In this document: positions 15,209 through 58,423 of the stretch, piece after piece | How positions within the stretch are numbered: position 1 is the first letter of the stretch | Layout: the number at the start of each line of letters is the position of its first letter | Source of the DNA: Escherichia coli | GTDB taxonomy: Bacteria; Pseudomonadota; Gammaproteobacteria; Enterobacterales; Enterobacteriaceae | Direction: 5' to 3' (one strand) | NCBI RefSeq assembly: GCF_009931435.1 | Contig: NZ_CP043414.1 | DNA length: 64,000 bases | Position numbers and translations under genes: made by a program | Notes under the pieces: model-generated | Seen by the model: the letters and a program-made list of their open reading frames with translations, nothing else | The model's database searches: none | What the model was told of the DNA's origin: nothing

Positions 15209-15339
15209 TAGGCCTGATAAGACGCGAGCGGCGTCGCATCAGGCACATTGCCAGTGTCGGATGCGGCGTGAACGCCCTATCCGACCTACAGAATTTACAG
15301 AATCTGGAACGCATCAGGTATCAGCAAGGTTACCTGATG
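15209..15339. repeat. REP/BIME cluster plus perfect 9-bp-arm inverted repeat downstream of ycfP
   Basis: taggcctgataagacgcgagcggcgtcgcatcaggc, gtcggatgcggcgtgaacgccctatccgacctac, and catcaggta-N10-tacctgatg. Confidence 0.7.
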
Positions 15340-15916: not shown

Positions 15917-17757
<1,841 letters not shown>

Positions 17758-40047: not shown

Positions 40048-41001
40048 TTATTTGTTGAGCTGGAACAGCGACAATCCCTGCATATCGGTAAATGCTTTAT
40101 ACGATGCCTGCAATGCCGTTTGCTGCATGATGTAAGATGAAATAGTTGCATTCCAGTCCACATCAACCAGATCGCTCATCTGCTGCGTTTGCCCTAAAGC
40201 GCGATCGCTACCTAATGAATCCAGCGACTCCAGTTCGTTCAGCTGCGTGCCTAATTCCGCGCGAACGGTCAGCACATTATTCAGCGAATTTTTCAGTCCG
40301 CGGTTGGTTTTATCCAGTGTCGCAGCGGCGGTTTCTTTATCCGCTTCGCTATCCGCGACCGGCGTTTTCAGGGCTGCGATGGCGCTATCCAGCATGGCAA
40401 AAAGATTGGTTTCAGAAGCGCTACCGTCTGGTTCCGCTACCGCGTTGCTGGTAATACTGTCGAAAATTTTGTCACCCGTGTGCCCTATCACCATCGAACG
40501 CGAAGCATCGACCTGTTGTTTAATACTTTCTGCTCCGCCAACATATTCGCCGTCTGCCTCACTAAACGGCGCAGTTTCTGTTTTATAACCGGCAAAAATG
40601 TAGCGCCCGTTACCGTCAGTGGTGTTCGCCAGATTCAGCAACTGGTCACGAAGCCCCTGAATATCCGTAGCCAGTGAGGCCCGGTCATCGTCACTCAAGG
40701 TGCCATTGCTGGCGTAGACAATTTTTTCCTGAGCATTCTGGATAGCAGTGGTGACCTGGCTAAGCACACTCTCTTCCAGTGACACTTTTTGAGTGGCGAA
40801 AGTACGCGCCAGCGTGTACTGACTGTTTTGCGCCTGTGCCTGGGAGAGAACAACAGCTTGTGATGCAGCAATGGGATCATCTGAAGGGTTAACGACTCGC
40901 TTACCCGTCGACATCTGTTCGCCGTACTTCATCCATTCTGCCTGAGAATTGGTGATGCCACGCATGTTTTGCTGGTACATCATCTGGGTACTGAAACGCA
41001 T
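40048..41001 (-). CDS. flgL: Flagellar hook-associated protein 3 (HAP3)
   Basis: 317-aa ORF MRFSTQMMYQQNMRGITNSQAEW... Confidence 0.92.
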   Translation of the reverse strand: MRFSTQMMYQQNMRGITNSQAEWMKYGEQMSTGKRVVNPSDDPIAASQAVVLSQAQAQNSQYTLARTFATQKVSLEESVLSQVTTAIQNAQEKIVYASNGTLSDDDRASLATDIQGLRDQLLNLANTTDGNGRYIFAGYKTETAPFSEADGEYVGGAESIKQQVDASRSMVIGHTGDKIFDSITSNAVAEPDGSASETNLFAMLDSAIAALKTPVADSEADKETAAATLDKTNRGLKNSLNNVLTVRAELGTQLNELESLDSLGSDRALGQTQQMSDLVDVDWNATISSYIMQQTALQASYKAFTDMQGLSLFQLNK

Positions 41002-42656: not shown

Positions 42657-42689
42657 GGAGGTTCCTTATAAGCCTTCAATTACAGAGTA

Positions 42690-42716
42690 TTATCGGCAGC
42701 GACACGCCGGACTTGA
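42690..42716 (-). promoter_or_regulatory. Candidate sigma28 (class 3) promoter for flgKL
   Basis: Minus strand reads tcaagtcc-N11-GCCGATAA: perfect sigma28 -10 element, 5/8 match at -35, about 35 nt upstream of the flgK ATG. Confidence 0.45.
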
Positions 42717-42721
42717 GTTAT

Positions 42722-43663
42722 TCAGAACAGATTATCAATGTTCATGCTGTAGGTTTTGCTCACCTTGTCGCTTATCGATTTCATCTGCTGAATCATGCTG
42801 GTGAGTTTGCGGGCATAGTGAGGATCGGTGGCATAGCCCGCGTCCTGTAGGGCCTGCGCCCCCTGCTCCGCACTCGCGGCGGTCGTCACGGCAGCGTAGC
42901 GCGGGTTACGTGTTAATAGCCCAACGTAATCCGACAATGCTTCCAGATACGAGCTGTAGACCCGAAACTTCGCTTTTACTTTCTTCGCTTCGCCATTTTC
43001 ATATTCAGTCGTGGTGATTTCAGTGACTGGCCCTTTCCAGTTGCCAGAGGCTTTGACGCCAAACAGGTTATAGCTCGGCTCGCCGTTTTCACGGCGGATT
43101 TGCCGTTGTCCCCAGCCAGATTCCAGCGCCGCCTGAGCGAGGATCAAATGATGTGGCACACCGCTTTGCTGGCTTGCCAGTTGGGCGGGCAACGAGAGTT
43201 GCGCGAGGAATGCTTTACTGTCACCCGGCAGCGAATCATCGTAGTTACGTGGTACGGCCTTTTGCACCAGCTGCGAAAGCGTCTGATTTTGATAACGCAC
43301 CACGGTTTCGAGCGGGAATTTCATCGGTGCTGCTGGCGTGGACTCCTCTGGCGATGGTTGTTCTGGCGTCATCTGTTTAACCATCATCTCTGCCAGCCCC
43401 AGACCTTTGCCCGCCGTCATCTGTTGGGCAATCTGCTGGTCATACATACTGGTATACAGGCGAGTGTGCTCGCTGCTGAACAGGCCATCTTTTGGTAAAG
43501 CGTCGCGCATGCTTTTCAACATCATCTGCACGAACATCCCTTCCACCTGGCGGGCCACCGGACGGATATTTGCCGCCGGATCTTCGCCCGCTTTCGCCTT
43601 AAGTTCGTTGAGCGATTGTGCATCCCAGGCCGCACTTGCCAGTAGTTTGCTGTCGCTGATCAT
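42722..43663 (-). CDS. flgJ: Flagellar rod-assembly protein / peptidoglycan hydrolase FlgJ
   Basis: Start at internal ATG ([22 protein letters not shown]) gives 313 aa; its ATG shares a nucleotide with the flgI stop (TGATG). Confidence 0.9.
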   Translation of the reverse strand: MISDSKLLASAAWDAQSLNELKAKAGEDPAANIRPVARQVEGMFVQMMLKSMRDALPKDGLFSSEHTRLYTSMYDQQIAQQMTAGKGLGLAEMMVKQMTPEQPSPEESTPAAPMKFPLETVVRYQNQTLSQLVQKAVPRNYDDSLPGDSKAFLAQLSLPAQLASQQSGVPHHLILAQAALESGWGQRQIRRENGEPSYNLFGVKASGNWKGPVTEITTTEYENGEAKKVKAKFRVYSSYLEALSDYVGLLTRNPRYAAVTTAASAEQGAQALQDAGYATDPHYARKLTSMIQQMKSISDKVSKTYSMNIDNLF

Positions 43664-50013: not shown

Positions 50014-50167
50014 ATCTCCTCCGCAAGTATCAAAATTCTGCCATCAGCTTAAATGCCTTTACGCGCGCGTTATCGGCGGAATAAACGCAAAATGGGTCGC
50101 TATTTATGCCGTTGATGGTCATTGCGTACAGGTACAATTCACGTTGTAGAAATGGCTGGGAGCGAAA
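50014..50167. promoter_or_regulatory. Divergent flgB / flgA class 2 (FlhDC-dependent) promoter region
   Basis: 154-bp gap between divergent flgB and flgA; the FlhD4C2 box itself is not resolved. Confidence 0.5.
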
Positions 50168-50827
50168 ATGCTGACAATAAAACGTAGCGTGGCGATCATT
50201 GCGATACTGTTCAGTCCGTTAAGTACGGCGAGCAATCTCACATCGCAGTTACAAACCTTTTTTAGCGCCCAGCTCGCGGGAGTAAGTGATGAGGTTCGTG
50301 TTTCTATTCGTACATCGCCCCATCTACTTCCGCCGTGCGAGCAACCACTGCTTTCGATAAGCAATAATTCCCGCCTGTGGGGAAATGTGAATGTGCTGGC
50401 ACGCTGCGGTAACGACAAACGATATTTGCAAGTCAATGTACAGGCCACAGGAAATTATGTGGTTGCCGCGATGCCCATTGTGCGGGGAGGAAAGCTGGAA
50501 GCTGGCAATGTAAAACTGAAACGCGGACGACTGGACACCTTGCCGCCGCGTACTGTGTTGGATATCAATCAACTTATTGATGCCGTTAGCCTGCGCGATC
50601 TATCACCCGAACAACCTATCCAATTAACCCAGTTGCGCCAGGCCTGGCGTGTAAAAGCGGGACAACGCGTCAACGTGATCGCCAACGGTGATGGATTTAG
50701 CGCCAACGCTGAAGGTCAGGCGTTGAACAATGCTGCCGTCGCACAGAATGCGCGGGTGCGCATGGTATCGGGACAGGTGGTCAGCGGCGTTGTTGATGCA
50801 GATGGGAATATTCTTATAAACCTGTAA
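50168..50827 (+). CDS. flgA: Flagellar P-ring assembly chaperone
   Basis: 219-aa ORF with signal peptide. Confidence 0.9.
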   Translation: MLTIKRSVAIIAILFSPLSTASNLTSQLQTFFSAQLAGVSDEVRVSIRTSPHLLPPCEQPLLSISNNSRLWGNVNVLARCGNDKRYLQVNVQATGNYVVAAMPIVRGGKLEAGNVKLKRGRLDTLPPRTVLDINQLIDAVSLRDLSPEQPIQLTQLRQAWRVKAGQRVNVIANGDGFSANAEGQALNNAAVAQNARVRMVSGQVVSGVVDADGNILINL

Positions 50828-50831
50828 GCTG

Positions 50832-50858
50832 TTAAAGATTACCCGACCCATGCCGATA
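50832..50858 (+). promoter_or_regulatory. sigma28 (FliA) class 3 promoter for flgMN
   Basis: TAAAGATT-N11-GCCGATAA: 7/8 match at -35, perfect -10, exact 11-nt spacer, about 45 nt upstream of the flgM ATG. Confidence 0.75.
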
Positions 50859-50902
50859 AATAAGCAACACATGATAAAAGCGCCCTCAATGAGGAATAAA
50901 CC

Positions 50903-51196
50903 ATGAGTATTGACCGCACTTCACCTCTGAAGCCCGTAAGCACCGTTCAACCGCGTGAAACCACTGACGCGCCGGTAACGAATACCCGGGCGGCAAAAAC
51001 AACCGCCGCCACCAGCACCAGTGTGACGTTAAGCGACGCGCAAGCAAAACTAATGCAACCCGGCAGCAGTGATATCAATCTTGAACGTGTCGAAGCGTTA
51101 AAACTGGCGATTCGTAACGGTGAACTAAAAATGGACACCGGCAAAATTGCCGATGCGCTAATCAACGAAGCGCAGCAAGACTTGCAGAGTAACTGA
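50903..51196 (+). CDS. flgM: Anti-sigma-28 factor
   Basis: 97-aa [28 protein letters not shown]... Confidence 0.92.
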
Positions 51197-51200
51197 TCGT

Positions 51201-51617
51201 ATGACGCGTCTTGCAGAGATCCTCGACCAGATGTCCGCAGTGCTTAACGATCTCAAAACAGTAATGGATCAAGAGCAGCAACATCTCTCAATGGGGCAGA
51301 TCAACGGCAGCCAGTTGCAATGGATTACAGAACAAAAAAGCTCACTGCTGGCGACGTTGGATTACCTCGAACAGTTACGCAGAAAAGAACCCAATGCAGA
51401 AAATAGCGTTGATATTAGTCAACGTTGGCAGGAAATTACGGTGCAAACTCAGCAACTACGTCAAATGAATCAACATAATGGCTGGTTACTGGAAGGACAG
51501 ATTGAGCGCAATCAACAGGCGCTGGAAATGTTAAAACCGCATCAGGAACCGACGCTGTACGGGGCGAACGGTCAGACATCAATACCCCATCGCGGCAGTA
51601 AAAAGATTTCGATCTGA
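51201..51617 (+). CDS. flgN: Flagellar export chaperone for FlgK/FlgL
   Basis: 138-aa ORF starting 4 nt after the flgM stop. Confidence 0.9.
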   Translation: MTRLAEILDQMSAVLNDLKTVMDQEQQHLSMGQINGSQLQWITEQKSSLLATLDYLEQLRRKEPNAENSVDISQRWQEITVQTQQLRQMNQHNGWLLEGQIERNQQALEMLKPHQEPTLYGANGQTSIPHRGSKKISI

Positions 51618-51626
51618 AGATTATCT

Positions 51627-51647
51627 CCGGCCTGCAGTGCAGGCCGG
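51627..51647. terminator. Palindrome in the flgN/murJ convergent gap, possible bidirectional terminator
   Basis: Near-perfect palindrome ccggcctgca-g-tgcaggccgg; no adjacent T/U run on either strand, so the function is uncertain. Confidence 0.35.
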
Positions 51648-51656
51648 AATGCATTG

Positions 51657-53279
<1,623 letters not shown>

Positions 53280-58373: not shown

Positions 58374-58423
58374 TATCCTTTGTGTCCGGCAAAAACATCC
58401 CTTCAGCCGGAGCATAGAGATTA

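Follow-up and report, generated by a model that had tools for sequence, protein, structure and literature searches.

Evidence for a sigma-28 (FliA)-dependent flgMN promoter in the flgA–flgM gap of an Escherichia genome

The flagellar genes flgA, flgM and flgN lie on the plus strand of the window (the whole 64-kb stretch of DNA analysed here), with flgB, flgC and flgD divergent upstream and murJ convergent downstream in the ORF list; the names flgA, flgM, flgN and murJ derive from the RefSeq annotation of near-identical E. coli loci. The gap between flgA and flgM is 75 nt long and contains in full a bipartite motif, TAAAGATTACCCGACCCATGCCGATAA, whose only exact occurrence in the window is at 50833..50859 on the plus strand. 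The motif is formed from two boxes and an 11-nt spacer, TAAAGATT-ACCCGACCCAT-GCCGATAA, and lies on the same strand as flgM. Five nucleotides (GCTGT, 50828..50832) lie between the flgA stop codon and the T of TAAAG, and 43 nt separate the last motif base from the flgM ATG. The features of the locus, in order along the plus strand, are:

50014..50167: flgB–flgA divergent intergenic region with FlhDC-dependent class 2 promoters, the second source of flgM transcripts (flgAMN)
50168..50827 (+): flgA coding sequence, 219 aa, stop codon TAA at 50825..50827 (ORF list and RefSeq annotation)
50833..50840 (+): −35 element TAAAGATT, 7 of 8 positions matching TAAAGTTT
50841..50851 (+): spacer ACCCGACCCAT, 11 nt, variable between species, two bases different from K-12, last T (50851) invariant
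50852..50859 (+): −10 element GCCGATAA, 8 of 8 positions matching the consensus, with the critical C-G-A at 50854..50856
50867 (+): inferred transcription start, an A, 8 nt past the last −10 base
50867..50902 (+): predicted flgM leader, 36 nt, with Shine-Dalgarno sequence GAGGA at 50891..50895
50884..50894 (+): inverted repeat CCTC (50884..50887)-AAT-GAGG (50891..50894), overlapping the flgM Shine-Dalgarno sequence
50903..51196 (+): flgM, anti-sigma-28 factor, 97 aa (ORF list and RefSeq annotation)
51201..51617 (+): flgN, export chaperone, second gene of the flgMN transcript (ORF list and RefSeq annotation)

A preliminary description of this DNA had given the motif as 50832..50858, one base too low, and had counted 4 nt from the flgA stop codon where there are five. 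Its assignment to the flgA–flgM gap was correct, but not the accompanying phrase "3' end of flgA", the motif being wholly intergenic. Minus-strand matches overlapping the motif, either sigma-70-like or terminator-like, were discarded as being at chance level (3 against 1.9 expected and 6 against 2.7, respectively).

Across both strands of the window (128 kb), only three sites fall within three mismatches of the sigma-28 consensus TAAAGTTT-N11-GCCGATAA, and the flgA–flgM site carries a single mismatch. Position-weight matrices (PWMs) were trained on the FliA sites that Fitzgerald et al. 2014 list from ChIP-seq in their Table 2 (PMC4183435), using all 51 sites that remained once flgMN had been excluded to avoid circularity, or 24 strong ones, with the spacer columns in or out. 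In every version the top match of the window is 50833..50860, at 24.3–27.6 bits, and the K-12 flgMN site, though excluded from training, ranks second among the 52 bound sites, behind tar. Scores from 200 dinucleotide-preserving shuffles of the window, taking the best per shuffle, had a mean of 14.6 bits (sd 2.2) and a maximum of 20.6, compared with 25.9 observed, and the match is therefore far beyond chance. The near-consensus sigma-28 motif that had been proposed is thus borne out by its one mismatch and by its rank as the top leave-one-out match of the window, and the weight-matrix scan suggested as a check places it above every shuffle.

Other sigma-28-like sites in the window provide a useful yardstick for this score:

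42689..42716 (−): flgKL class 3 promoter, TCAAGTCC-N11-GCCGATAA, second-best PWM match, ~20 bits
16983..17010 (−): sigma-28-like TCAACAATTTATCAGGCTTGCCGATGAC, ~18–19 bits, at the 3' end of thiK, sense, ~50–75 nt upstream of nagZ
27121..27148 (+): sigma-28-like TACAGAATTGTCGCATAATGCCGTTAAC, ~17–18 bits, antisense within pabC

The flgKL promoter starts 5 nt past the stop codon (TGA 42724..42722) of the upstream class 2 gene, flgJ, a layout identical to that of the flgMN promoter after flgA, and its K-12 orthologue coincides with a FliA ChIP-seq peak of fold-above-threshold (FAT) 47 (PMC4183435). The thiK site differs in K-12 by a single T-to-G change immediately preceding GCCGAT, while the pabC site is identical there and has a −10 box, GCCGTTAA, that is devoid of the CGA core. 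Neither is among the 52 K-12 FliA ChIP-seq peaks (PMC4183435). Both were set aside as candidate new promoters, being present in K-12 yet unbound, and with the CGA core missing from one; the thiK site is probably weak or inactive. The matrix separates true promoters (flgMN at 24–28 bits, flgKL at ~20) from unbound intragenic look-alikes (~18 bits), and flgMN can serve as a clean positive control when other windows are scanned with a ChIP-seq-derived sigma-28 matrix.

Conservation was followed with a FlgM protein scan of one genome per species, which returned 80 loci, among them loci from Citrobacter, Salmonella, Enterobacter, Buttiauxella, Lelliottia, Cedecea, Kosakonia, Atlantibacter, Yokenella, Phytobacter, Leclercia and other Escherichia species; 78 loci, from about 20 enterobacterial genera, had enough upstream sequence. 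In all 78, the best PWM match within the 250 nt before flgM scored 19.9–26.4 bits, always with an 11-nt spacer, whereas control 250-nt segments from the same loci reached 16.2 bits at most, and none of the 1840 attained 19.9. When 75 distinct sequences were anchored on the motif, TAAAG and TGCCGAT held 2.0 bits at each column and never varied, while columns in the spacer, in the flanks on either side and even in the 3' coding end of flgA held 0.2–1.5 bits. For 65 of the 79 loci, the motif starts 5–6 nt past the stop codon of flgA.

Of 5426 complete E. coli genomes, 5425 carry the region and, from the closest allele to the most divergent, substitutions occur in the spacer, the linker between stop codon and box, the leader and flgA, and none in the boxes. 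The gap is 97.3% identical to that of E. coli K-12 MG1655, with both boxes and the whole leader the same; the sole differences are at spacer positions 50846 and 50850, each an A here and a T in K-12. The allele has no intact match among the 5426 genomes, the best having 1 mismatch over 111 nt, and its A/A spacer is shared with one of them, strain 2013C-4282. This spacer allele is the only strain-specific feature of the promoter. More widely, flgA shares 93.6% DNA identity with K-12, and FlgM agrees with the K-12 protein at 96 of 98 translated positions, the stop codon being counted. The flgA–flgM–flgN segment (50100..51700) is at least 99% identical to only 14 of the complete E. coli genomes and 90–95% identical to 4766, and the thiK–nagZ region (16500..17500) is at best 97.5% identical to any of the 5426. 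Sequence divergence on this scale points to an E. coli-like but divergent Escherichia lineage as the source of the window.

Direct evidence for sigma-28 binding comes from K-12, in which the corresponding site, TAAAGATTACCCGTCCCTTGCCGATAAA, coincides with a FliA ChIP-seq peak of FAT 48 assigned to flgMN (Fitzgerald et al. 2014, PMC4183435). The peak centre converts to approximately 50871 in the window, using a genome-version offset of 776 nt inferred from motif positions, and this is the expected centre of RNA polymerase bound at the flgMN promoter. Genomic SELEX with reconstituted RpoF holoenzyme also yielded a peak, of intensity 15, in the flgA–flgM spacer (Shimada et al. 2017, PMC5493296), and so an additional factor is unneeded for binding. 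Overexpression of fliA in an flhD deletion restored flgM expression in K-12, and the existence of overlapping flgAMN and flgMN operons was backed by the authors' data (PMC4183435). The K-12 FlhDC ChIP-seq peak at 1130152 (NC_000913.2) would, after coordinate conversion, map to approximately 50103 in the window. This arrangement has been reviewed as a negative feedback circuit, in which flgM is transcribed from a sigma-70 P1 in the flgA–flgB region and a sigma-28-dependent P2 upstream of flgM (PMC3861889).

Together, these data identify 50833..50859, with near certainty, as the sigma-28 (FliA)-dependent flgMN promoter (class 3, or P2), with a start at about 50867 and its genes also read from the flgA promoter. 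The sequence analysis establishes the motif's presence, position, statistical strength and conservation; FliA occupancy and binding by the holoenzyme, along with promoter activity and the transcription start, are carried over from the K-12 and Salmonella orthologues and would be expected to hold here. The two spacer substitutions probably leave the promoter active in this strain. The preliminary description of a class 3 promoter driving the anti-sigma factor is upheld as regards sigma-28, given the identical K-12 boxes, the ChIP-seq peak and the SELEX result, but is incomplete in that flgMN is dual class 2/3 and is expressed from the flgA promoter too. The promoter is already known, having been recognised since the 1990s and mapped genome-wide in 2014.

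Placement of the transcription start draws on published numbering of related constructs. Romilly et al. 2020 (PMC7549644) made a fusion of flgM from +1 to 105 that includes the first 23 codons, which implies a 36-nt leader and therefore +1 at 50867. A sigma-28 cryo-EM preprint numbers the tar non-template strand as −13C, −12G, −11A and −9A; the last A of GCCGATAA is then −8, and +1 is again at 50867, an A. Numbering from the aer promoter (CGA at −11 to −9) gives 50865. The flgM start most likely lies within 50865..50867, and 50867 would be the position on which two independent lines agree, namely the Romilly leader and the tar numbering. A Cappable-seq supplement (PMC4782308) has no entry for K-12 positions 113016x / 112938x or for flgM, and a bioRxiv paper on intragenic FliA promoters makes no mention of flgM.

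A leader initiated by sigma-28 is predicted to be 36–38 nt long in Escherichia and a few Buttiauxella, and 50–59 nt in Salmonella, Citrobacter, Enterobacter, Cedecea, Kosakonia and others. The segment missing from the Escherichia leader is ~17 nt, GC-rich and often folds as a hairpin; in the RNAalifold alignment of 33 long-form leaders, no common structure was found for it. The CCTC-N3-GAGG repeat is invariant in 17 of 17 representative genera and in all 33 long-form leaders, with variation in the adjacent bases. From the long-form leaders, RNAalifold predicts only the invariant 4-bp CCUC/GAGG helix, with zero covariation, and since these bases never vary, covariation cannot test the helix. 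This helix is absent from the minimum-free-energy fold of the Escherichia leader, and a search of 50700..51300 against Rfam, with E-values up to 1, returned no match. The repeat could be an anti-Shine-Dalgarno mini-hairpin. A broader proposal, which is speculative and which we regard as rather unlikely, is that CCUC-N3-GAGG (50884..50894) could be a conserved translational control element, and that Escherichia's loss of the ~17-nt segment, kept in most other Enterobacteriaceae, could alter the translation or stability of the class 3 flgM mRNA, which might relate to an apparent class 3 share weaker than that of Salmonella.

Other RNA elements in the window score above the Rfam gathering threshold: the rne 5' UTR element (36307..36643, +), the SraB sRNA (34278..34446, −), naRNA4 (CssrE; 15211..15286, −) and the PyrC leader (58374..58423, +). 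The convergent genes flgL (40048..41001, −) and rne (36668..39853, +) leave 39854..40047 between their stop codons. FlgO, a sigma-28-dependent, Hfq-binding sRNA, has been described from the flgL 3' UTR (Melamed et al. 2023, PMC10578931), and the flgL 3' UTR at 39854..40047 should encode it here.

In the proposed mechanism, RNA polymerase carrying FliA would place sigma domain 2 on GCCGATAA and domain 4 on TAAAGATT, across the 11-nt spacer. The sigma-28 cryo-EM preprint describes the −10 element as read by domain 2, which contacts −13C and −12G strongly, and the −35 element as read by domain 4 through weaker contacts, aided by the β' zinc-binding domain touching the spacer. Transcription from ~50867 would then produce an flgMN mRNA with a 36-nt leader, encoding FlgM and the chaperone FlgN, and both genes would additionally be transcribed from the FlhDC-dependent flgA promoter upstream. 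With two promoters, flgM output would track both the early (class 2) stage and the late stage at which FliA is active. FlgM retained in the cell sequesters FliA; once the hook-basal body is complete, export of FlgM releases FliA, and transcription from the promoter replenishes FlgM, as is well established (PMC4183435, PMC3861889). Free FliA would in this way raise synthesis of its own inhibitor, constituting negative feedback. The flgMN promoter is the cis element that closes this FliA–FlgM loop, which couples late flagellar gene expression to hook-basal body completion. It had been claimed that the site explains the loop from sequence alone; the motif does account for the sigma-28 dependence of flgM, but the loop also needs the known function of FlgM. 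Confirming the site adds only that the standard wiring is retained in a divergent Escherichia lineage, and it therefore advances no open question.

The extent to which the promoter contributes to flgM expression is a separate matter, as it could be a genuine site for FliA–RNA polymerase that is minor or poised in Escherichia, with most flgM mRNA derived from the FlhDC-dependent flgA (class 2) promoter and the site mattering only at high FliA activity, for example after hook-basal-body completion, in filament repair or during swarming. We consider this possible, although it is not the reading we favour. K-12 RNA-seq values for flgM were 451 in the wild type and 318 in a fliA deletion, a difference that was not significant, and the flgAMN value fell to 3 in an flhD deletion (PMC4183435). 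The modest fall on loss of fliA is attributable to the class 2 promoter also transcribing flgM, so that, under laboratory conditions, the sigma-28 promoter may account for only a small share of flgM expression in Escherichia. The same study states that FliA adds little to dual-regulated transcripts under the authors' conditions, and that overexpressing fliA can make such promoters highly active (PMC4183435). Weighing against a minor role are the statement, restated in a 2026 paper, that about 80% of flgM transcription in Salmonella is class 3 (PMC13344023), a motif score among the best together with a high ChIP signal (FAT 48), and the strict conservation of both boxes across ~20 genera, which argues for a selectively important activity.

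Explanations that deny the site any promoter function fare far worse. Many weak intragenic FliA sites exist in E. coli, most of the 52 described by Fitzgerald et al. being intragenic, without stable RNA and not conserved, and the window itself has two other sites of at least 18 bits that are intragenic and unbound in K-12; a chance or non-functional resemblance of this kind is nevertheless effectively refuted already, and we give it practically no weight. The flgA–flgM site outscores the best of 200 shuffles by 5 bits, lies between genes on the flgM strand, 43 nt before the flgM ATG, has boxes that are invariant in 75 distinct sequences while neighbouring bases vary, and has a K-12 orthologue bound in vivo and in vitro. 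It is likewise very improbable that the conserved bases serve the flgAMN class 2 transcript, for instance as an RNA element for flgA termination or flgM translation, with an incidental match to sigma-28. The motif is indeed transcribed as RNA within the class 2 message and, in 65 of 79 loci, keeps its distance of 5–6 nt from the flgA stop codon, but a pattern of two constant boxes held 11 nt apart by a spacer that is free to vary is the mark of a bipartite DNA site rather than an RNA helix, the invariant bases coincide exactly with the sigma-28 contacts, and 50700..51300 lacks an Rfam match. A sigma-28 promoter for flgMN accordingly stands as the preferred reading.

The K-12 flgMN promoter (flgMp) resembles this site in its boxes, 11-nt spacing, distances of 5 nt from the flgA stop codon and 43 nt to the ATG, and leader, and differs in having T instead of A at window positions 50846 and 50850. 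The flgM class 3 promoter of Salmonella enterica was reportedly described by Gillen and Hughes in 1993. This promoter (PflgM) is also attributed to Wozniak and Hughes 2008, as relayed in PMC2859248. Like the present site, PflgM lies directly after the flgA stop codon, has the form TAAAGATT-N11-GCCGAT and belongs to a dual class 2/3 arrangement; in the subspecies arizonae and diarizonae, unlike here, the −10 box is GCCGATGA. The predicted flgM leader is ~52–53 nt in Salmonella as opposed to 36 nt here, and a class 3 share of ~80% of flgM transcription reported in Salmonella (PMC13344023) compares with the modest fliA effect in K-12 (PMC4183435). Beyond flgM, the tar, motA, fliC, tsr, yhjH and flgKL promoters all share the bipartite consensus TAAAGTTT-N11-GCCGATAA with the flgMN site. 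They part company in their regulation, as tar, fliC, tsr and yhjH are fully dependent on FliA, whereas flgMN and flgKL are also transcribed by read-through from class 2 promoters (PMC4183435).
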